Of a stretch of 8,995 nt of DNA, positions 574-7,993 are shown in pieces; position 1 is the stretch's first letter; every line of letters starts with the position of its first letter. The position numbers and the translations under genes are program-made. The notes beneath the pieces were generated by a model. That model saw nothing but the letters and a program-made list of their open reading frames with translations. It was not told where the DNA came from and searched no databases. The stretch comes from a virus (Duplodnaviria; Heunggongvirae; Uroviricota; Caudoviricetes): IMG/VR virus record IMGVR_UViG_2609460067_000017; one strand, 5' to 3'.

Positions 574-801
574 TTCTTTTTCAAATAATGAAACGCCGCG
601 TGGATGCCATTTATCGCACAAGATAGAGTGCATTTATCGCGCGGCGCATCATGCAGCTGCGACGCGGCCATCGAATATGGGGCGGATCTCTGCAACATGT
701 GCCGGGCGTCCATTCAGGTGCCAGCCGTTACGCCAGGTAATGCGGTCAATATGTCTTAACATCGGTCTTTCCTCGGTATAAGTTAAACGCTGGTCAGGCG
801 C

Positions 802-1278
802 TCATGCATGGTGGTCTTGCGCAGTGCGTATCACTGCTCCTCGCGTCGCTACCAGCGCCGCTATTGCTTCGTCAATTTCCTGAATAGTTAACTCTGGCGC
901 GAAGTGGAGATGTACAGCGTTAATCGCTTCCACCCCTTCTTTTGCCGCCAGCGTTGCCAGCAAAACGGGATCGCCCGGCGACTCCAGACGTGCCCGCCGT
1001 TCTGCGGGTAGCACGGCTTTCATCACACTGGCCAGCACCTGAGTTTTTCGGCGCGCCGCCGTTGTCTCGCCACGTAACCAGCGAAAGATTTTCTGCCGAT
1101 TGTTGTTGATGGCTCTCCAGTCCACGTTGCCGTCCGCGTCCTCAAATTCATGTAGTCTCAACTCATCATTGCGTCCCTGACTGAACCAGGCCCGGCAGAT
1201 TTCAATCGTGACGAGTTCCTGCCCTGCCCTTGCCGCCCAGGTCAAAATCTCTTTTTGTAATTCCTCTTGGTTTTCCAT
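802..1278 (-). CDS. YdaT-like prophage regulator in the cII position (hypothetical)
   Basis: 158-aa ORF with SD AGGAGA about 4 nt upstream of the ATG at 1278; lies immediately downstream of the Cro/YdaS-like gene on the same strand. Contains an RQKIFRW-type segment that I recall from the YdaT family; this is memory-based, not searched. Confidence 0.5.
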   Translation of the reverse strand: MENQEELQKEILTWAARAGQELVTIEICRAWFSQGRNDELRLHEFEDADGNVDWRAINNNRQKIFRWLRGETTAARRKTQVLASVMKAVLPAERRARLESPGDPVLLATLAAKEGVEAINAVHLHFAPELTIQEIDEAIAALVATRGAVIRTAQDHHA

Positions 1279-1336
1279 AGCGTCTCCTGTCGCTAAAAAT
1301 TGATTACGCTTAATCAGATTTGGGGCTCACCAACAG

Positions 1337-1567
1337 TTAAGCTGCTTCCGTTTTAGGCAAGCTGTCATCTGGGTTTGGGTAAAGATCCGGTCTAAGATCA
1401 TGAGGGGTCACGCGCCATTCAAGAGCTTCAGATGTGCGCAAAACCTCTTCACCGGGAACCCGTCCTTTGAACCAGAGGCTTACCGTTTGTGGTTTTTTCC
1501 CTAATCGCCGCCCTAACTCGGATTGACTCATTACGGAAAGAATTTTGTCTTGCAGTTGTTTATCCAT
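1337..1567 (-). CDS. Cro/YdaS-like helix-turn-helix regulator
   Basis: 76-aa product MDKQLQDKILSVMSQSELGRRLGKKPQTVSLWFKG... with an HTH signature and a C-terminal LRPD motif typical of YdaS/Cro-like proteins. Strong SD AAGGAG (1573-1578, minus strand) 5 nt upstream of the ATG at 1567. The longer track ORF (to 1603) starts at TTG and would run into the operator region, so the shorter start is preferred. Divergent from the repressor gene. Confidence 0.65.
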   Translation of the reverse strand: MDKQLQDKILSVMSQSELGRRLGKKPQTVSLWFKGRVPGEEVLRTSEALEWRVTPHDLRPDLYPNPDDSLPKTEAA

Positions 1568-1592
1568 ATGGACTCCTTGTGTCCGCGTCATC

Positions 1593-1631
1593 ATTACAAA
1601 CAATAACTGTAATTACAAATTATATTTGCAA
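1593..1631. promoter_or_regulatory. Divergent immunity-region operators (two adjacent 19-21 bp imperfect palindromes sharing the half-site TTACAAAT)
   Basis: ATTACAaacaataacTGTAAT (1593-1613) and TTACAAATtatATTTGCAA (1613-1631) lie between the divergent Cro-like and repressor genes; ATTACAAA occurs as a direct repeat at 1593-1600 and 1612-1619. Confidence 0.45.
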
Positions 1632-1665
1632 TGCTCCCTACAATTAAACCTTGTATCCTTACGGT

Positions 1666-2079
1666 ATGAACACAAAAACGAAAAACATGGCTTTTGCTAG
1701 CCGACTACAACGGATTCTAAAAGACTTAGGCTGGTCTCAATCTGAGTTAGCTCGCCATATTGGGGTTACGGCTCAATCAGTTCAGGCATGGTGTAATGGG
1801 GTAACTCCAAGAAAAGATAAATTAGACAAGCTAGCAAAAGTGACCGGATACCCTGTTCATTTTTTCTTCATGAATGAAGGGGAATATTTGGATGAATCCA
1901 CACTACACCCGGGTAATTACAATCAAGAACTAACCCCGCAAGAACAGGCTCTACTGCAACTATTCAGAGGACTGCCTGAGAGCGAAAAAAATAAATTAAT
2001 CAATGAGCTAAAAGAAAAAAGAGAGCACTTCGATCTACTGCTAAAAGAACTACTTGAAGCCAAAAACCAGACAAAATAG
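1666..2079 (+). CDS. XRE-family HTH transcriptional repressor (cI-like immunity repressor)
   Basis: N-terminal HTH (LGWSQSELARHIGVTAQSVQAWCNG) typical of XRE/cI-type repressors; divergent from the Cro-like gene across an operator-containing intergenic region; same strand as the int-ward early operon, as in lambda. Start is ambiguous (TTG 1651, ATG 1666 or ATG 1687); none has a strong SD, so a leaderless or weakly initiated start is possible. TAG stop at 2077-2079. Confidence 0.7.
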   Translation: MNTKTKNMAFASRLQRILKDLGWSQSELARHIGVTAQSVQAWCNGVTPRKDKLDKLAKVTGYPVHFFFMNEGEYLDESTLHPGNYNQELTPQEQALLQLFRGLPESEKNKLINELKEKREHFDLLLKELLEAKNQTK

Positions 2080-2197
2080 TTCAGTTCAAATTTCCAGGCC
2101 AGCCGCTGCTGGCATGCAACTTTCCCCTAACACAAAAACACCTTTACACAGTGAATATTTTTTTGCCCCTCACTACAAATTATTTTTTAAAAACACA

Positions 2198-2226
2198 TTG
2201 ACCATTACAAATACAAATTGTAAAGT
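2198..2226 (+). promoter_or_regulatory. Candidate pL-like early promoter overlapped by a third operator
   Basis: -35-like TTGACC (2198-2203), 17-nt spacer, -10-like TAAAGT (2221-2226); overlapped by TTACAAATacaAATTGTAA (2206-2224), which shares the TTACAAAT half-site with the two operators at 1593-1631. A partial copy CTACAAATTAT lies at 2173-2183. Confidence 0.4.
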
Positions 2227-2562
2227 CACTTTCATCAACAACGCTTACCCAGCGGCAGTTGTTCAGAAACACGTTCTGACAGCCGGAAAGACGGCACCAA
2301 ATTTTGCGCGTCGGCGCCAACACGGTGACAGAGGGAAAGACTTCACCGGCATATGGCACATGTGTCGAAGCGGTCTGGATGGAAGCGGAGCCTTAACGCG
2401 TTGTCTCCATAGCAGGTAGCCGGAATGTGCAAGCCACAGCCAGGTATGAGCGATTGATTCACCATCAAGGCGATACGGTGTGACCACCAGGGAAGAGTCC
2501 TGGCTACAACACGAGAGCGCACTTCATCGACTCAACTTTGAGCTTTGTCGTTAAATTTTGAA

Positions 2563-2648
2563 ATGGCGGAGTGCGCTCCCGGTTGTGGTGAACAGGTGTT
2601 TAACGGGAACTCCCTGCCCGTTACCCGGTTCGATTCCGGGCGCCCATC
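2563..2648 (+). other. tRNA-like element or fragment (T-arm CCCGG-TTCGATT-CCGGG followed by an acceptor-like CGCCCAT)
   Basis: A perfect T-stem/loop motif at 2624-2640 (GGTTCGATTCC embedded in a 5-bp GC stem) followed by 7 nt and a C. No CCA is encoded and I could not pair a clean 5' acceptor strand (ATGGCGG at 2563-2569 pairs only 5 of 7), so this is a tRNA-like structure or tRNA 3' fragment, not a confident tRNA gene. Confidence 0.2.
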
Positions 2649-2672
2649 ATCAATTTGCTGTGTTTAGTCTTT

Positions 2673-2700
2673 GCCCAGTCCGCACGATGGGCCATTTTTT
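2673..2700 (+). terminator. Possible weak intrinsic terminator (GCCCA-N10-TGGGC followed by CA and T6)
   Basis: 5-bp GC-rich stem at 2673-2677 and 2688-2692, then a T6 run at 2695-2700; about 25 nt downstream of the tRNA-like motif. The loop is long, so strength is uncertain. Confidence 0.25.
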
Positions 2701-2981
2701 CACACAGCCAGGTTTTATCGCTGTGCCTGAGTCCCCAACAGGAGAGGCCAAACCCGCAGCGTGACACCAGGGAAAGACCGGAGGAAGTACCACGCCTGAC
2801 CAGCGTTGACCATGAGCCTGACCAGCTCAAAACAGGAAAGACCAGCCCGGGCCTGACCAGCCCTGTACGGTCGTAATGGAAACATAACGACGCCGGAAAC
2901 GTAACCGGCACCCTTTAGATAGCAAAAGACCCGCACAAGGCGGGCCAGTTACCCCGAACGGCGACCAAACCATTCGGATTT

Positions 2982-3005
2982 ATCACAAGTGACCAAACTT
3001 GTGAT
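2982..3005. repeat. Perfect 9-bp inverted repeat (ATCACAAGT-gaccaa-ACTTGTGAT)
   Basis: Perfect palindromic arms at 2982-2990 and 2997-3005; it overlaps copy 1 of the ATGAGGAAAGACCA motif by 2 nt and lies upstream of the first early ORF. Could be a protein-binding site or an RNA hairpin in the early leader. Confidence 0.5.
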
Positions 3006-3017
3006 GAGGAAAGACCA
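3004..3017 (+). repeat. Copy 1 of conserved motif ATGAGGAAAGACCA (followed by ACG, not ATG)
   Basis: The 13-nt core ATGAGGAAAGACC matches the copies at 3427 and 6602 exactly. Here no ORF follows directly, which may mark a decayed gene start or a recombination joint. Confidence 0.6.
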
Positions 3018-3089
3018 ACGACACTGACGCTATGGAAGCTGATCAATATTCGCTGATCGGCTCTGAGTATACATTACCAAGGAGTCGCT

Positions 3090-3410
3090 ATGGAAGCGCG
3101 CACCATCCCAGTAACACTCTTTATTCATTATGCAACTTCAACTTTCAGCCACGAAAAGCTGCTTGTTGCGACTGTTGATATGTCAAAAAATTTTCCAGAC
3201 AGGTACATCCTTCTGGAAAGCCGCGAAATTGAAATTACCGTTAACCAGCCCGAGCCAATCGACATCATCGGTTTACAGGTCGAGCAACTGCGTGAACAAA
3301 AACAGAAAACAGTCGCCGACGCCCAACAGCGTATTGCTGCTATCGATGACAAAATCCAGCAGTTACTTTGCATCGAATACACGCCAGATACCGATGAGCT
3401 CCCCTACTAA
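3090..3410 (+). CDS. Hypothetical early-operon protein (106 aa, predicted coiled-coil C-terminus)
   Basis: ORF with a strong SD AAGGAG (3077-3082) 7 nt upstream of the ATG at 3090; TAA stop at 3408-3410; C-terminal region rich in Q/E/K heptad-like residues. No recognisable family. Confidence 0.6.
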   Translation: MEARTIPVTLFIHYATSTFSHEKLLVATVDMSKNFPDRYILLESREIEITVNQPEPIDIIGLQVEQLREQKQKTVADAQQRIAAIDDKIQQLLCIEYTPDTDELPY

Positions 3411-3426
3411 AAACCACTGACCTGTA

Positions 3427-3440
3427 ATGAGGAAAGACCA
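3427..3440 (+). repeat. Copy 2 of conserved motif ATGAGGAAAGACCA, immediately 5' of the 738-aa ORF start codon
   Basis: The motif ends at 3440 and the ATG is at 3441; the embedded GAGGA acts as the SD. Confidence 0.7.
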
Positions 3441-5657
3441 ATGACCATTTTTAACGGCTTGTTAGAAGCGAAAAAAGGCGCGCTCAAAAACGGCGCGATC
3501 CCGGCGCTGGCCATCGCCATCGCCGCCCCTAACAAAAAAGTTGCCGAGAACATCATCATCGGCAAATTGTGGGAAGCCTACCCTGACCACGGCGACAACT
3601 ATTTCAAACCTAAAATCTGGGAAGATGCCCCGGGCCAACCGCGCCCAGGCGTCGGTGAGTTTGATGAGACGTTTGCCACAGAACACAGTTTTGATGGCGA
3701 AAAATGGGTAGTTAACACTCCTGTTGATTCAGATTGCAGTTCAGCAGATATCTCACAGGTTAGCGACCTGATGAAACTGCCGGCTCGTGAACGATTCGCC
3801 GCCGTTCTGCTGTTCAGCCACGACGCCAACGAAGTCGACAGTGAATTGCTTGTGCAGACGCGTGAATACCTGGAGATGCTCGATAACAGTGATACTGACA
3901 GTGAGGATGAGGTTGACGCGTTTAACCGCATCGTTCTTGATGCCATGGTGGCGTGTAAGCCCATCGAGTACATGCATATTGCTGGATTGAATAATCTGGT
4001 ACATGCAATTTTGGCAAGTTGCGATACCCAGGAACAAAACCCGACCAGTTGGACTATCTCCAAATTTATAAAAAAATGGGTAGAGAATCCCGGTAAACGA
4101 GATGAAATGCTGCCGGAGGTAAAACCAGAAACAGCATCCGCACGTCCTTACAAACAGACTCACGCCACTCTGGATCGTGAAATTGCCTGCGCCCTGTTAC
4201 CTGTTGCCCCGGAAAAAATCACCCCCAGCATCCTGAAAGCGGCAGACGAAATAATCAGTCAGGACAGGGAAGATTTTAAACGCTGGTCAATGGCCTTGCG
4301 CACAACGGATCAGATCCTTGCCTATGACCGCGCATCAGTATTCGGTGTTATTCAGAGCGCCCCCGCAAAAGACACGTACCACTTCCCACAATCCCTGCGC
4401 AGTCACATCGACAACTGGCTGCAAGCTAACGGGCAGCGTGATGCAAATGCTGTTGAAGAGAAGCCAAAGGAAGCAGCACCCAAGGATGATGTAAAAGTCA
4501 CCAACCACGGCGGCGGACGATTCTCAATTGATGGGATGATGTCAGAAACACCCTCAAATCAGGGCGAAAAAAGCGAAGCTGCAAATGCTGGAGAACGTAG
4601 TTTGCAGCAGTTGCGTGAGCAGTTTGTCACGCCTCGCCATGTGTATGACGTACCTGAAAATAACGCCGTATCACAGAGGGAACCTGCAGCTATTACCCTG
4701 GCAGAAGAGACTCCTCCACAAGAACAACTTAGCGAGCAGGTAAAGGATCTGGTGCAGAACGTTGACGCGCTGGTTGAGCGGATCCATGCCGAAGAGCACA
4801 AGCGGCAGAATGCAATCTCAGCTATCGAAACGGAGTTAAAGGACTCAGATGACACGGATAACCTGGCATTGTGGAAGAACGTATTCAAAACCGATGAGCG
4901 CTTCACCAGTGCTTTCTCTCAGAATGGCGGCGGCACATCCATCAACGGCACTTATATAGCGATGAAAGCGACTCGCGAATTTGGGCCATTTGGTATTGGC
5001 TGGGGGGTAGAGGTGCTGGAGGAGCGCTTTGATAAAGGCGCACCAATAGTTCGCAAAAAACAGGTTGGTGAAAAAATAGAATGGGATCTGATTCAAGACG
5101 GTGTTGGCGGGTACCTATGTGAAATGCACCACACCATGAAAGTGAGAGTCTGGTACATATTGAATGGGGTACGCGGTGAGTCCGAGGCTTACGGATGCAC
5201 ACCTTATATCTACGACACTAAATACGGACCAACAAGCGACGGCGAAGCACCGAAGAAATCCTGGACGGATGCTGTTAAGAAAGCGCTATCCCCTCTCGGA
5301 TTCAGCGCCGATATTTTCATGGGCCTGTACGACAATCCGGAATACCGCCAGAGGAATAAAGCTGAGTTTGATATCAAGAATGCCAGCGAGAATGCGGAAG
5401 ATGCTACCCGTCTGCGTAAGGAACTGGATGAGAAGCTTATCAACGTTGCCAATACGCTGGCCGCCGCGGTAACCGCCAACGAAGTAAACAAGGTATTTGG
5501 CCTCATCGCCCGCGAAGTGGATGTACACAGGAAAGCAGCGGAAACCAAAGGCGATAAAGAATATTCATCGTATCTGGGATCACGTCTGCGCCGTATCACC
5601 GACATTAAAACTGAACGCCTCGCCGCCCTTACCGCTGCACAGGAGCAAACAGCATGA
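3441..5657 (+). CDS. Large prophage protein with a C-terminal Rad52-family single-strand annealing (SSAP/Sak-like) domain fused to an uncharacterised ~330-aa N-terminal domain and a charged low-complexity linker
   Basis: Uninterrupted 738-aa ORF. Residues ~470-640 (nt ~4850-5360) carry recalled Rad52 signatures: GGG...YI...FGxxGW (FSQNGGGTSINGTYIAMKATREFGPFGIGWG versus human RAD52 [29 protein letters not shown]) and the helix K..WTDAVKKAL.PLGF......GLYDNPEY (versus [28 protein letters not shown]). The N-terminal ~330 aa have no family I recognise. The TGA stop overlaps the next gene's ATG (ATGA at 5654-5657). Confidence 0.8.
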   Translation: MTIFNGLLEAKKGALKNGAIPALAIAIAAPNKKVAENIIIGKLWEAYPDHGDNYFKPKIWEDAPGQPRPGVGEFDETFATEHSFDGEKWVVNTPVDSDCSSADISQVSDLMKLPARERFAAVLLFSHDANEVDSELLVQTREYLEMLDNSDTDSEDEVDAFNRIVLDAMVACKPIEYMHIAGLNNLVHAILASCDTQEQNPTSWTISKFIKKWVENPGKRDEMLPEVKPETASARPYKQTHATLDREIACALLPVAPEKITPSILKAADEIISQDREDFKRWSMALRTTDQILAYDRASVFGVIQSAPAKDTYHFPQSLRSHIDNWLQANGQRDANAVEEKPKEAAPKDDVKVTNHGGGRFSIDGMMSETPSNQGEKSEAANAGERSLQQLREQFVTPRHVYDVPENNAVSQREPAAITLAEETPPQEQLSEQVKDLVQNVDALVERIHAEEHKRQNAISAIETELKDSDDTDNLALWKNVFKTDERFTSAFSQNGGGTSINGTYIAMKATREFGPFGIGWGVEVLEERFDKGAPIVRKKQVGEKIEWDLIQDGVGGYLCEMHHTMKVRVWYILNGVRGESEAYGCTPYIYDTKYGPTSDGEAPKKSWTDAVKKALSPLGFSADIFMGLYDNPEYRQRNKAEFDIKNASENAEDATRLRKELDEKLINVANTLAAAVTANEVNKVFGLIAREVDVHRKAAETKGDKEYSSYLGSRLRRITDIKTERLAALTAAQEQTA

Positions 5658-6223
5658 GCACTGCTATCGCTATTGCAAAAGAATATGCCAGTCTGATTGA
5701 CCTGTTAGAAACCGCCGATGAACTGACGCCAGAGATGATCGCCGACACGCTTGAAGGCATGGAAGGAGAACTGGGAGACAAACTGGACGCCATGATGGTC
5801 ATCTGCCGTAATTTACAGGGCAATGCCAATACCTGCGCTGAAGAAATGTCTCGCCTGGCAACCCGTAAGACGTCCTTTGAAGGCAAGGAAAAAGCAATTC
5901 GAAAGCATATGCTCACCTGCCTGCAAGCTGCTGGCCTGGATAAACTGAAAACCGCAAAAAACACATTTACTGATGCACAGGGGGCTATCCGGGTAATTAT
6001 CGATAGCAAAGATAAGATCCCGGATGAGTATGAGGGCGTGTCACTTGTTGATGTAGAAACGGTTATTACACCAAACAAGCGAGCCATTAAAGAAGTGATT
6101 GAATCTGCGGAGGCGGTTGCCGCCGAAATACTGGCGCGTGGAGAAACACCACCAGCCGAGTTATTAAACCCGGTACCAGGCGCACATCTGGAACGCGGCG
6201 AACGGTCACTGAGGATACGCTAA
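5654..6223 (+). CDS. Siphovirus Gp157-like protein (prophage recombination/replication-module accessory protein)
   Basis: 189-aa acidic helical protein; its pattern and its position next to an SSAP gene match my recollection of the Sipho_Gp157 family. SD AGGAG at 5641-5645; start overlaps the upstream stop (ATGA); its stop overlaps the next start (TAATG at 6221-6225). Confidence 0.65.
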   Translation: MSTAIAIAKEYASLIDLLETADELTPEMIADTLEGMEGELGDKLDAMMVICRNLQGNANTCAEEMSRLATRKTSFEGKEKAIRKHMLTCLQAAGLDKLKTAKNTFTDAQGAIRVIIDSKDKIPDEYEGVSLVDVETVITPNKRAIKEVIESAEAVAAEILARGETPPAELLNPVPGAHLERGERSLRIR

Positions 6224-6405
6224 TGCTTAAACTCACATTAAAGCGTGGTGACGCGGTTCACCTGGTACTTGCCGATGGTACCAATGGCATTATTGAAGCA
6301 CGGAGCCGCTGCGAACTTGGGCTACACCTGCCAGAAAACATTAAGGTCACTCGGGAGAAATCGGCATTCACCCCACAAGAACTGATTACGCCTAATCAGA
6401 AATAA
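6223..6405 (+). CDS. Small CsrA-like protein (60 aa), translationally coupled to the Gp157-like gene
   Basis: Ungapped alignment by eye to E. coli CsrA (61 aa) over residues 1-47: M1, L2, L4, T5, G9, G33, P37, V42, R44 and E45 are identical, with conservative matches at K7/R7, D10/E10, L34/V34 and I40/V40. This includes the positions corresponding to CsrA L4 and R44, which are important for RNA binding. TAATG overlap with the upstream gene; SD-like GAGGA upstream. Confidence 0.55.
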   Translation: MLKLTLKRGDAVHLVLADGTNGIIEARSRCELGLHLPENIKVTREKSAFTPQELITPNQK

Positions 6406-6454
6406 AAACTCACCATCGCTAGCATTGCGATTCACCAGACACCGGAGGATCACA

Positions 6455-6679
6455 ATGCTGCGATGGCAACCGGGAGCAACTCTGCTCTCCGCATTTGATA
6501 TCAAAATTGGTCGACTGTCGGCCAGCGTCAGGAAACAGACTTTGACCGAGTCTGATATTGCCCGTGCCTGCCAGAAGGCAGATGACGCAATAAGCTACAT
6601 AATGAGGAAAGACCATGAAAAGCGATCACGACATAATCACCAGAGAAGAAATGGTCGAGCTGACGGGAAGCCCACTTAA
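6455..6679 (+). CDS. Hypothetical small basic protein (74 aa from the ATG at 6455)
   Basis: SD GGAGGA (6445-6450) precedes the ATG at 6455; overlaps the start of the next ORF by 65 nt in a different frame. The C-terminus is very basic. Coding status is uncertain. Confidence 0.35.
   Translation: MLRWQPGATLLSAFDIKIGRLSASVRKQTLTESDIARACQKADDAISYIMRKDHEKRSRHNHQRRNGRADGKPT
6602..6614 (+). repeat. Copy 3 of conserved motif ATGAGGAAAGACC, immediately 5' of the excisionase-like ORF start codon
   Basis: The motif ends at 6614 and the ATG is at 6615; identical 13-mer to the copies at 3004 and 3427. Confidence 0.7.
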
Positions 6680-6878
6680 ATCAAAGCAATGTGAGGCTCT
6701 TCGCCGGGCTGGAATTTTCTTCATGGAAAGGGCTGACGGACACCCAAAAACAACCTGGGGCCATTTCATGAACCCAATAAAATTTCGCAATTTACAGGAG
6801 GTGACGACGCGAAAAGATGATGAACCTGATTTTGGAGCAATATTTAATGGCCGGAAAGAGAAAGAACCCAGCAGATAA
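6615..6878 (+). CDS. Excisionase-like / recombination directionality factor candidate (small DNA-binding protein upstream of int, DUF4224-like)
   Basis: 87-aa ORF directly upstream of and overlapping the integrase start by about 30 nt, an arrangement like lambda xis-int. The MVELTGSPLKSKQCEALRRAGIFF segment resembles the small DNA-binding proteins commonly found upstream of phage integrases (recall, not searched). Confidence 0.5.
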   Translation: MKSDHDIITREEMVELTGSPLKSKQCEALRRAGIFFMERADGHPKTTWGHFMNPIKFRNLQEVTTRKDDEPDFGAIFNGRKEKEPSR

Positions 6879-7863
6879 CTGGATGCCGCCTCGTGTTTAC
6901 CAGGGCAAAGCGGCCTACGAATTCAGGAATAAAGATAACAAAGCGATACGCCTGTGCGCATTGGATGCACCACGATCAGCCGTATGGCTGGCATATGAAA
7001 AAGCGGTCGGTGACGAAAAAGAAAGAAATACTTTTCAGGCGCTCACGGAACAATTCATGACCTCCCCTGATTTTATGGATTTGGCAGTCGAAACCCGGAA
7101 AGACTACACAAAATATTCCGGAAAAGTTCTGCCTGTCTTCGGGAAGATCGACCCGGATAAAATCAAACCTGAACATATTCGGCGCTATATGGATCAACGC
7201 GGTTTATCAAGCCGAACTCAGGCAAACAGGGAAAAAAGCTTTATGTCCCGGGTATTCCGTTGGGGTTATGAACGAGGTTATGTTCAGAGGAATCCTTGTC
7301 AGGGAGTTAAACAGTTTAAAGAGAAAGCTCGCGAACGTTATATTACGGATGAAGAATATCAGGCCGTTTATGAAGTGTCTCCTGATGTTGTTCGCGTAGC
7401 AATGGAGATTGCCTACTTATGCGTGGCCAGACAGAGTGATGTACTTTCATTGCAGAAAGACCAGCTGTTCGATTCCGGGATCTACATTCGTCAGGGAAAA
7501 ACCGGCGTTAAGCAAATCAAAGCCTGGTCGCCTCGTCTGCAGAAAGCGATAGCTCTGGCTCGTTCTCTGCCATTAAAAACGGGAATCAGTAGCCTGTTTG
7601 TGATTCATCAAACTACCGGTGGCAAGTATACCCGTGATGGTTTTAACTCTCGTTGGCGTGATGTCAAAGCGGCAGCACAGGAAAAATATCCTCATCTGCA
7701 AATAGACTTCACATTTCATGATCTGAAAGCAAAAGGTATCTCTGATCTGGAAGGCAGCCTGGAAGAGAAGCAAGCAATTTCCGGGCATAAGAACCCGCGA
7801 CAGACAGCAGCATATGACCGGAAAGTTAAAGTAGTGCCCGTAGTTGGTGGCCAGAGAAAATGA
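6847..7863 (+). CDS. int: Lambda-family tyrosine integrase
   Basis: C-terminal catalytic-domain motifs by recall of lambda Int: KTGVK (versus SKTGVKIAIP), FHDLKA (versus FHELRS) and GHKNPRQTAAYDR (versus GHKSDTMASQYRD), with the tyrosine nucleophile near the C-terminus. The start is taken as ATG 6847 (MAGKRK, analogous to lambda MGRRRS); the track ORF begins at 6817. Lies next to the tRNA-Leu 3' end. TGA stop at 7861-7863. Confidence 0.9.
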   Translation: MAGKRKNPADNWMPPRVYQGKAAYEFRNKDNKAIRLCALDAPRSAVWLAYEKAVGDEKERNTFQALTEQFMTSPDFMDLAVETRKDYTKYSGKVLPVFGKIDPDKIKPEHIRRYMDQRGLSSRTQANREKSFMSRVFRWGYERGYVQRNPCQGVKQFKEKARERYITDEEYQAVYEVSPDVVRVAMEIAYLCVARQSDVLSLQKDQLFDSGIYIRQGKTGVKQIKAWSPRLQKAIALARSLPLKTGISSLFVIHQTTGGKYTRDGFNSRWRDVKAAAQEKYPHLQIDFTFHDLKAKGISDLEGSLEEKQAISGHKNPRQTAAYDRKVKVVPVVGGQRK

Positions 7864-7887
7864 ATGATGATGCGTCCAGAGAAAAAT

Positions 7888-7909
7888 CATCTTCGGACGC
7901 ATCTTCGGA
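7888..7909 (+). repeat. Direct repeat CATCTTCGGA x2 (12-bp period) between int and the att/tRNA junction; candidate integrase arm-type binding sites
   Basis: Exact 10-nt copies at 7888-7897 and 7900-7909; they overlap a 9-bp inverted repeat GATGCGTCC (7869-7877) / GGACGCATC (7895-7903). The position matches where an attP arm would end up in an integrated prophage. Confidence 0.3.
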
Positions 7910-7926
7910 AATGAGAAAGAAGATAC

Positions 7927-7950
7927 AAAAAAACCACCCGAAGGTGGTTT
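7927..7950 (-). terminator. Strong rho-independent terminator for the glyW-cysT-leuZ tRNA operon (weakly bidirectional)
   Basis: Minus-strand RNA reads AAACCACC-UUCG-GGUGGUUU followed by a U-tract (A7 on the plus strand at 7927-7933): a GC-rich stem with a UUCG tetraloop about 45 nt downstream of the leuZ 3' end. On the plus strand the same hairpin is followed by only TTT, so it is at best a weak terminator for int. Confidence 0.7.
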
Positions 7951-7993
7951 CACGACACTGCTTATTGCTTTGATTTTATTCTTATCTTTCCCA

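Follow-up and report, generated by a model that had tools for sequence, protein, structure and literature searches.

A putative small RNA encoded opposite the pL leader of lambda-like prophages is complementary to a ribosome-binding-site motif shared by delayed-early gene clusters

The 8,995-nucleotide (nt) stretch of viral DNA analysed here, IMG/VR record IMGVR_UViG_2609460067_000017 of the Caudoviricetes, is referred to below as the window. From 652 to 7993 it is occupied by the early region of a lambda-like prophage, which lies at the leuZ tRNA gene of E. coli, beside pgsA. An earlier note on this DNA had drawn attention to a short motif that is repeated at gene boundaries and occurs once more where no gene follows. 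We find that the motif marks the ribosome-binding sites of genes that head the delayed-early clusters of the prophage, and that the gene-less copy at 3004 is probably, judging from the sequence and its homologues, the reverse side of the seed of an undescribed small RNA. The putative small RNA gene, of about 135 nt, lies on the minus strand (2924..3061), opposite the part of the pL leader that directly precedes the first pL gene.

The leftward (pR) operon, on the minus strand, contains a cro-like gene (1337-1603), a YdaT/cII-like gene (802-1278) and a gene for a protein of 74 amino acids (aa; ATG 762->760), which heads the replication cluster in intact prophages and is cut off in the window at 652. 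In an intact copy the 74-aa gene is followed leftward by O-like and DnaB replication genes and by the cluster of a 136-aa gene; positions 1-652 of the window are part of a different, P2/P88-like element. The junction falls inside the 74-aa gene, a Hin-type recombinase gene with 100% identity to a P88-like phage of ST131 being joined there, and owing to it the pR operon of the window genome ends ahead of the replication genes. None of the best matches listed among 5426 complete E. coli genomes extends to the left of 652. Between the divergent pR and pL promoters lies the cI-like gene (1651-2079, plus strand), and operator-like repeats are located at 1593-1631 and 2172-2223. A predicted pL promoter (TTGACC, 17 nt, TAAAGT; 2198-2226, plus strand) reads through the whole feature, which places the motif region on the pL transcript and the minus-strand copies of the motif on the pR transcript. 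The pL leader, about 1 kb without annotated gene between the cI-like gene and the first pL gene, a 106-aa gene with an ordinary ribosome-binding site (start 3090, plus strand), is likewise unannotated in RefSeq; most of it is present in 448 of the 5426 complete genomes (about 8%). The terminator scan called an intrinsic terminator inside it (2678..2700, plus strand), which is stronger in relatives. Further to the right a 738-aa gene, labelled exonuclease in PHROGs (ATG 3441, plus strand), heads a cluster with Gp157 and a 60-aa gene, and a DUF4224 excisionase gene (xis; ATG 6615, plus strand) heads the xis-int pair, the integrase gene coming next.

The exact 13-mer ATGAGGAAAGACC occurs on the plus strand at 3004, 3427 and 6602, and the 9-mer GGAAAGACC contained in it (at 3008, 3431 and 6606) recurs at 2771 and 2835, as had been reported together with three exact plus-strand copies of CCTGACCAG at 2795, 2817 and 2852. 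One further copy of each shorter word, overlooked at the time, lies on the minus strand (GGAAAGACC at 764-772 and CCTGACCAG at 790-798), and this pair stands just past the stop codon of ydaT and just ahead of the ATG of the next gene. The contention of the earlier note that such repetition is not due to chance is borne out by counts far above expectation. With up to two mismatches ATGAGGAAAGACC has five matches where 0.21 are expected, a number reached in none of 200 shuffles; with up to one mismatch GGAAAGACC has 12 matches (2.07 expected) and CCTGACCAG has seven (1.37 expected). Two of the 13-mers had been described as ending directly at a start codon, which is true of the copy at 6602, abutting the ATG at 6615, whereas the copy at 3427 has one A before the ATG at 3441. 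The copy at 3004 is indeed gene-less: AACG follows it, with ACG where the 3427 copy reads ATG. Two resemblances to ribosomal RNA were set aside. GGAAAGACC equals positions 2056-2064 of 23S rRNA (the Erm/macrolide site and the core of the TLR13 ligand), probably by coincidence, since the word is short, no mechanism suggests itself and the C-type variant of the motif described below breaks the identity. The complementarity of AAGACCAG to 16S rRNA near position 985, which the C-type variant breaks too, we also take to be coincidental.

At gene starts the motif forms part of a cassette with the layout GAGGAAAGACC(A), 0-5 nt, AUG, often with a short CUGACCA-loop hairpin upstream. GAGGAAAGACC precedes four of the roughly 56 genes of the prophage, namely the 74-aa, 136-aa and 738-aa genes and xis, each of which is the first gene after an intergenic gap and leads a run of overlapping genes. 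The delayed-early clusters headed in this way serve replication (74-aa), recombination (738-aa) and excision (xis), with one of unassigned function (136-aa); the cro, ydaT, cI and 106-aa genes have ordinary AGGAG sites. In the window the motif occupies the ribosome-binding sites of the 738-aa gene (3427..3439, plus strand), of xis (6602..6614, plus strand) and, in the form CCGAGGAAAGACC, of the 74-aa gene (764..776, minus strand). The 43-kb prophage as a whole contains GGAAAGACC seven times, always within the two early operons; neither the late genes (about 30 kb) nor the host DNA on either side (about 20 kb) contain it. The earlier note had allowed that the motif might simply be the common context of strong ribosome-binding sites in the host. 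This is not borne out: in 228 kb of the chromosome of a prophage-carrying host, GGAAAGACC occurs once, away from gene starts, and GAGGAAAGACC does not occur at all. Moreover, 9-13 nt of the motif are invariant across genera whose proteins share only 40-60% identity.

Each copy of CCTGACCAG forms a 7-nt loop, CUGACCA, closed by a differing stem of 4-5 base pairs (bp). Three such hairpins lie on the plus strand in the pL leader, ACGC-CUGACCA-GCGU at 2792..2806, UGAGC-CUGACCA-GCUCA at 2813..2829 and GGGC-CUGACCA-GCCC at 2849..2863, and a fourth, GCGC-CUGACCA-GCGU (787..801, minus strand), separates the ydaT stop codon from the ribosome-binding site of the 74-aa gene. The order in the pR operon is stop codon, hairpin, 10-30 nt, GAGGAAAGACC, 0-5 nt and ATG, which is seen behind ydaT and a second time behind dnaB. 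When viral contigs were scanned for such modules (CTGACCAG, 8-30 nt, GGAAAGACC), more than 120 loci were returned, 57 of them with two to four modules, and about 80 share the same early genes at a median protein identity of 30-80%, depending on the gene. A control scan in which the third base of the 9-mer was changed (GGBAAGACC) gave single chance matches only, mostly in coding sequence, where GGCAAGACC reads Gly-Lys-Thr, except for one true ZF40-like phage. The 79 distinct gene-adjacent hairpins have stems of 3-8 bp, mostly 4-6, and since a T-rich tail follows only 10 of them, most are not terminators. A reading of the 7-nt loop as a tRNA mimic or anticodon loop was rejected, as it is unsupported by gene content and by the position of the motif.

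The leader itself is rich in copies of the 9-mer: every relative has two to seven of them between cI and the 106-aa gene, in leaders that range from 476 to 1500 nt in length. Many of them form hairpins, in which the loop is GAAAGA and the stem varies, and others are unstructured. In the window, on the plus strand, the copy at 2767..2781 could form a short GAAAGA-loop hairpin (CCGG-GAAAGA-CCGG, GCGG-GAAAGA-CCGC or CUG-GAAAGA-CAG in relatives) and the copy AACAGGAAAGACCAG at 2831..2845 is unstructured. Two GAAAGA-loop hairpins, CCG-GAAAGA-CGG (loop 2286-2291) and GAGG-GAAAGA-CUUC (2331-2344), stand near the 5' end of the pL transcript (2282..2344, plus strand). The last leader copy is always preceded in relatives by two GACCAA-loop hairpins, and the stretch after it is conserved and includes GTATAC or ATTATA, an ATG being optional. 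The earlier note had considered the copies in this region as possible relics of decayed gene starts. The 3004 copy, however, is kept in every relative with or without a following ATG and is therefore not a conserved gene start.

But why would a ribosome-binding-site motif be maintained where no gene begins? The answer may lie on the opposite strand. Read from there, a candidate -10 box TATACT (3071->3066) stands directly ahead of a first predicted stem-loop (SL1, 3058->3013), which is followed by a segment predicted to be unpaired, UUUCCUC (3012->3006), by two further stem-loops, SL2 (3005->2982, loop UUGGUC 2996->2991) and SL3 (2977->2954, loop UUGGUC 2968->2963), and by a terminator stem (2946->2928) with a U-run next to it (2927->2924). 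The full anti-motif GGUCUUUCCUCAU (3016->3004, minus strand) is the reverse complement of the orphan copy ATGAGGAAAGACC at 3004..3016 of the plus strand; it is found between SL1 and SL2 at the same place in all homologues and is nearly invariant while the flanking stems vary. In the subgroup of phages to which the window belongs, a duplication of CGCTATGGAAGC (3028-3039 and 3086-3097, including the start of the 106-aa gene, plus a nearby CTGATC) lengthens SL1 by about 23 nt and creates a spurious open reading frame at 3032-3178.

Several observations assign the structure to the minus strand. The segment of the window folds with a minimum free energy of -59.4 kcal/mol (z -5.66) on this strand as compared to -45.7 kcal/mol on the plus strand. 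In all 49 distinct homologues, too, the stretch between the putative start and the T-run has the better fold on the minus strand, by 15 kcal/mol on average (means of -59.7 on the minus and -44.7 kcal/mol on the plus strand). Read in the sense of pL, the stems of the GACCAA-loop hairpins contain 37 A-C or C-A juxtapositions as opposed to four G-U pairs; on the minus strand each such juxtaposition reads as a G-U pair. In an alignment of 26 homologues, among them the Pectobacterium phage ZF40 and a ZF40-like contig, with a hand-set structure of SL2 and SL3, these two stem-loops are 90.4% paired as compared to 73.6% in shuffles, none of 500 shuffles being as high. Compensatory changes on both sides are seen in 14 of the 18 pairs, and the covariation score is 0.524 as against 0.227 in shuffles and 0.05-0.15 in controls with slid partners. 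A consensus structure computed with RNAalifold was set aside, its long-range pairs being artefacts of the alignment. The element thus combines the features expected of the small-RNA class, a conserved structure with covariation and a segment, UUUCCUC, that is predicted to be unpaired.

A conserved candidate -10 box and a terminator found by scanning may point to a separate transcription unit. TATACT, TATAAT or, in one locus, TATAAA is present at the same minus-strand place in 64 of 64 homologues, in some of them as TGaTATAAT, and in the window about 20 nt separate this candidate box from the start codon of the 106-aa gene. The terminator scan calls the minus-strand terminator at 2946->2928, followed by TTTTGC, where many relatives have 6-7 U's. 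Further terminator-like sites lie on the same strand at 2912->2889 and 2864->2838, and read-through of the terminator would give a longer antisense RNA with more copies of the anti-motif. Rfam holds no family that matches the small RNA, neither in a search of the whole window nor in one of 2230-3100, and no description of the element turned up in the literature library that was searched for the motif, the seed and small RNAs or transcriptomes of ZF40.

The minus-strand stretch UUGGUCUUUCCUC (3018->3006) is the exact complement of GAGGAAAGACCAA, and at four ribosome-binding sites the match to this seed is perfect over a length of 11-13 nt. In a duplex prediction that paired a 20-nt piece around the seed with 77 start regions of prophage and neighbouring host genes, these four, belonging to the 738-aa (-32.5 kcal/mol), 136-aa (-30.6 kcal/mol) and 74-aa (-25.6 kcal/mol) genes and to xis (-25.1 kcal/mol), were the best of all, with the next region at -20.5 and the median at -12 kcal/mol. 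Duplex prediction with the full-length RNA was dropped, as it returned unrealistically long duplexes. The UUGGUC loops of SL2 and SL3 are complementary to GACCAA in the motif and, with a terminal G-U pair, also to GACCAG in the CUGACCAG loops. The geometry of such a double contact would fit, the hairpin of the mRNA lying 5' of the ribosome-binding site and SL2 and SL3 lying 3' of the seed.

A further comparison comes from phages in which the motif differs. In ZF40, whose homologue of the 738-aa protein is 35% identical, six equivalent gene starts carry GAGGCAAGACC, one of them reading GATC, and the orphan copy and the seed read GGCAAGACC and GGUCUUGCC, respectively. The putative small RNA of ZF40 has a perfect TATAAT as its -10 box, and one pair of its terminator is G-U, which only the minus strand allows. 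The annotated ZF40 gene gp08 (4919-5407, 162 aa from a GTG start) coincides in part with the leader, with the putative small RNA and with a 106-aa gene homologue that lacks annotation (5212->4919); the annotation of gp08 is probably wrong. A search starting from 106-aa gene homologues of the ZF40 type yielded 25 loci with the seed GGUCUUGCC (C-type), and their gene starts carry only GGCAAGACC, in three to six copies per locus. In about 45 loci with the seed GGUCUUUCC (A-type), only GGAAAGACC is found, so that none of about 70 loci mixes seed and target types. A further proposal of the earlier note, that the motif is a boundary sequence for recombination between phages, leaves both this concerted switch from A to C and the antisense RNA gene unexplained. 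The cassette and the RNA occur together in Escherichia, Raoultella, Citrobacter, Enterobacter, Serratia, Rosenbergiella and Pectobacterium, and representative genomes of the first six genera have the RNA and five to nine copies of the motif. Two phages described as infecting Stenotrophomonas, BUCT708 (vB_SmeS_BUCT708) and BUCT709, share 72% nucleotide identity and the full gene order with the enterobacterial prophage family and carry the small RNA and all motif copies; their host label looks doubtful.

The distribution and conservation of the motif, the structure and strand of the RNA, its complementarity to the ribosome-binding sites and the matching of seed and target classes are demonstrated by these comparisons. 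We consider it rather probable that they reflect a phage small RNA which gates translation of the delayed-early genes through a shared operator at their ribosome-binding sites. The RNA would be transcribed from the candidate -10 box on the minus strand, antisense to the pL leader, and would present the unpaired UUUCCUC, extendable to UUGGUCUUUCCUC, together with its two UUGGUC loops. It would pair with the motif sites, perhaps starting by loop-loop contact, and pairing would hide the Shine-Dalgarno sequence and the start codon, such that translation of the replication, recombination and excision genes would be blocked. The cro, cII-like ydaT and cI genes and the first pL gene would escape by virtue of their ordinary ribosome-binding sites. 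Once pL is de-repressed, its leader, with the copies of GGAAAGACC and of CUGACCA and the full complement of the RNA, would titrate or destroy the small RNA. It is further conceivable, if somewhat less likely than not, that the RNA represents a previously undescribed family, of 120-150 nt, that serves as the master gate in lambda-like phages without N, silencing every delayed-early cluster of both operons by way of the shared operator and a kissing hairpin, with decoys in the leader that neutralise it upon induction and with seed types (A and C) that define immunity or exclusion groups among related prophages of Enterobacterales.

A number of points weigh against this interpretation. The flanks of the 9-nt core do not co-vary cleanly, seeds that end in CCUA mostly facing GAGG targets, and a permutation test on the flanks was weak and confounded by relatedness and is not used as evidence. 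It may be that the A-type and C-type classes go back to one evolutionary event, and a concerted change of seed and target would be expected of an operator bound by a protein, too. In the predicted folds UUGGUC, which makes up one half of the seed, pairs with a conserved GAUCAG inside SL1; this may mean that the seed is masked or may be an artefact of folding. For the small RNA promoter no -35 element is conserved among the homologues, and the scan for consensus promoters did not call the site. Counts of G-U pairs and A-C juxtapositions leave the strand of the other hairpins undecided (9 versus 10 in GAAAGA hairpins and 18 versus 10 in CUGACCA hairpins), and the GAAAGA and CUGACCA hairpins of the leader may be decoys, kissing partners or parts of a longer antisense RNA. 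Finally, one target cluster is incomplete in the window, where the prophage is cut off at 652.

Could a protein be the regulator instead? In that case the 60-aa protein or the basic 136-aa protein would bind GGAAAGACC and the GACCA loops as a translational operator, the copies in the leader would be decoys or nucleation sites, and the antisense RNA would be a separate element acting in cis. We regard this as unlikely, even if several observations speak for it. The motif overlaps the Shine-Dalgarno sequence and contains GGA, the hairpin 10-30 nt upstream of the Shine-Dalgarno site is reminiscent of two-site binding by CsrA, the dimers of which bind two sites, the concerted evolution fits a changed protein specificity, and the 60-aa protein is conserved in the family. 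A shared translational operator overlapping the Shine-Dalgarno sequence had already been suggested in the earlier note, and in kind this suggestion agrees with a motif that is specific for the early operons, sits at four cluster-leading ribosome-binding sites, is kept in several genera and has switched at all its sites together in a sister clade. The CsrA-like regulator proposed along with it, the 60-aa protein, found no support. Against the Pfam family CsrA (PF02599) this protein scores 13.1 bits, below the cut-off of 27 and with E = 0.097, and a comparison of its profile with CsrA by hhalign gives a probability of 3.5%; a sequence search of solved structures found no relative, and Foldseek found no significant structural match for its four-strand AlphaFold model. 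The 60-aa protein (phrog_2482; 6223-6405, plus strand) has 16 invariant residues in 24 sequences, four predicted beta strands and no detectable relative of known function. As to the GGA sites that a CsrA system has in hairpin loops and over the Shine-Dalgarno sequence, the Shine-Dalgarno copies of the motif contain GGA and the upstream CUGACCA loops do not. No candidate protein has a recognisable RNA-binding domain. A co-occurrence test for a protein partner was uninformative, because all early genes travel together. Nor would a protein operator explain why the orphan copy is placed in an unpaired segment of a minus-strand RNA that has its own -10 box and terminator.

It is quite unlikely, in our estimate, that the antisense RNA acts only in cis on the pL leader and the first pL gene, whether it interferes with transcription, leads to cleavage by RNase III or occludes the ribosome-binding site of that gene, with its complementarity to other sites arising incidentally because a favoured cassette has a copy in the leader. 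Its full complementarity to the pL leader and the proximity of its -10 box to the ATG of the 106-aa gene would suit such a role, and cis-antisense RNAs such as OOP of lambda and Sar of P22 are common in phage immunity regions. However, the place of the anti-motif is fixed in all homologues, its 3' part is predicted to be unpaired, its sequence is nearly invariant, the one variant that it has goes along with the variant found at all of the distant ribosome-binding sites, and the loops match a second conserved element beside these sites. We see still less room for the notion that the hairpins and purine-rich loops are nut-like antitermination sites at which a protein or RNA modifies the polymerase to pass the terminators of the leader and the intergenic regions. 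Like nutL and nutR, they are found downstream of pL as well as pR, in many copies in both operons; the GAAAGA and GACCAA loops resemble boxB loops (GAAAA/GAAGA of lambda, GACAA of P22), terminators are present in the leader, and T-rich tails follow 10 of the 79 intergenic hairpins. Yet the majority of these hairpins are not terminators, an N-like protein was not found, and the first pL product (106 aa) is acidic and without Pfam match, its PHROG having no known function. No boxA was seen, the most conserved element separates the Shine-Dalgarno sequence from the ATG, a position that makes no sense for a nut site, and the strand asymmetry puts the GACCAA-loop hairpins on the strand that is not mRNA. 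We hold this explanation to be very improbable. That the motif is a plain strong ribosome-binding site, with a good Shine-Dalgarno sequence (GAGG or AGGA) and normal spacing, spread among the gene modules it heads by recombination and without a dedicated regulator, is hardly credible in view of its invariance across genera whose proteins have diverged, the concerted switch of all copies in one clade, the conservation of a gene-less orphan copy and the fact that late genes and the host do not use it.

The pL leader has further properties of its own. A type I-E CRISPR spacer of E. coli 702/18 is identical over 32 of 32 nt to positions 2780-2811 (L002, 4011-4042), and strain 23CRST013 has the same match. 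The protospacer spans one CUGACCA hairpin, and cat at 2812-2814 represents an ATG protospacer-adjacent motif on the other strand, which makes the prophage family a natural CRISPR target. The segment 2592-2702 (plus strand) resembles the 3' part of RprA (AUUGCUGUGU.UAGUCUUUGCCC, hairpin and U-run). Membership in the RprA family (Rfam RF00034) was rejected, since the match, of 37.4 bits with a gathering threshold of 70 (E = 0.0096 in a local scan), is below threshold and the similarity is confined to about 45 nt at the 3' end. The RprA-like stretch ends at the leader terminator and is kept in relatives, several of which are nearer to the RprA consensus, and a pL transcript stopped at this terminator would bear an RprA-like 3' end. 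At about 2600-2650 (plus strand) a fragment resembling the T-arm and acceptor of a tRNA, CCCGGTTCGATTCCGGGCGCC, is found, which is also present in ZF40 (L125, about 5480-5520, minus strand); ARAGORN reports no tRNA gene at this place, and a match to tRNA-Sec is weak (E = 0.54). The non-coding stretch 2347-2518 (plus strand) is 72-79% identical to unannotated intergenic DNA of unrelated phages, among them the P1-like SJ46 and D6, SPN1S, Tyrion and several Klebsiella phages, and of P1-like E. coli plasmids. In SJ46 its counterpart is located between tciC and the dnaB/ban gene, and Rfam has no match for it.

If a small RNA does gate the delayed-early genes as we suggest, widespread prophages control replication, recombination and excision post-transcriptionally by one small RNA and a shared operator, and a compact RNA switch operates in phages without a classical N antiterminator in at least seven genera of Enterobacterales. 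It would also point to an RNA-based layer of superinfection immunity that current annotation pipelines overlook. With one seed, several identical targets and natural compensatory variants, the phages moreover offer a clean system in which to study small-RNA specificity.

By analogy, the logic of the putative RNA is closest to that of P1 c4 and P4 CI, which are immunity RNAs, and of Sar of P22 and OOP of lambda. The c4 RNAs of P1 and P7 and the CI RNA of P4 pair with short repeated targets in early transcripts, including a ribosome-binding site, and co-evolve with them as specificity classes. The element described here is alike in being a small phage RNA complementary to repeated targets that include ribosome-binding sites, and in the co-evolution of classes. 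Different from c4 and CI, however, which are cut from the same strand upstream of their targets, it is encoded opposite the pL transcript, where it has a candidate -10 box and a terminator to itself, and its targets lie in both divergent early operons, at no fewer than four cluster-leading ribosome-binding sites. The C4 covariance model has no match in the window at E <= 1 or in 2230-3100 at E <= 10, and in view of this result, of the opposite strand and of the putative separate transcription unit, the RNA is not a member of the C4 family. With Sar and OOP it shares the form of a short antisense RNA with a terminator opposite an early leader or gene, and Sar likewise hides a ribosome-binding site. 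Then again, Sar and OOP act on the single transcript that they overlap, whereas the seed sequence of the putative RNA is met with again at ribosome-binding sites far away, implying that it acts in trans and on more than one operon. Its build of seed, hairpin loops and intrinsic terminator is that of the OxyS-fhlA and CopA-CopT type, in which recognition is by kissing loops, with two predicted contacts of which one is at the ribosome-binding site. Unlike the enterobacterial trans-acting small RNAs, which have imperfect sites in host genes, it would be directed at the phage's own genes through an identical, co-evolving operator of 11-13 nt. CsrA/RsmA with the CsrB decoys is comparable in having an operator over the Shine-Dalgarno sequence and a multi-copy RNA as a possible sponge, yet in the phage the complementary partner of the operator is an RNA, and no CsrA-family protein was confirmed. 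On the comparative evidence presented here, the small RNA and its shared operator would be a variant of known phage-RNA regulation.

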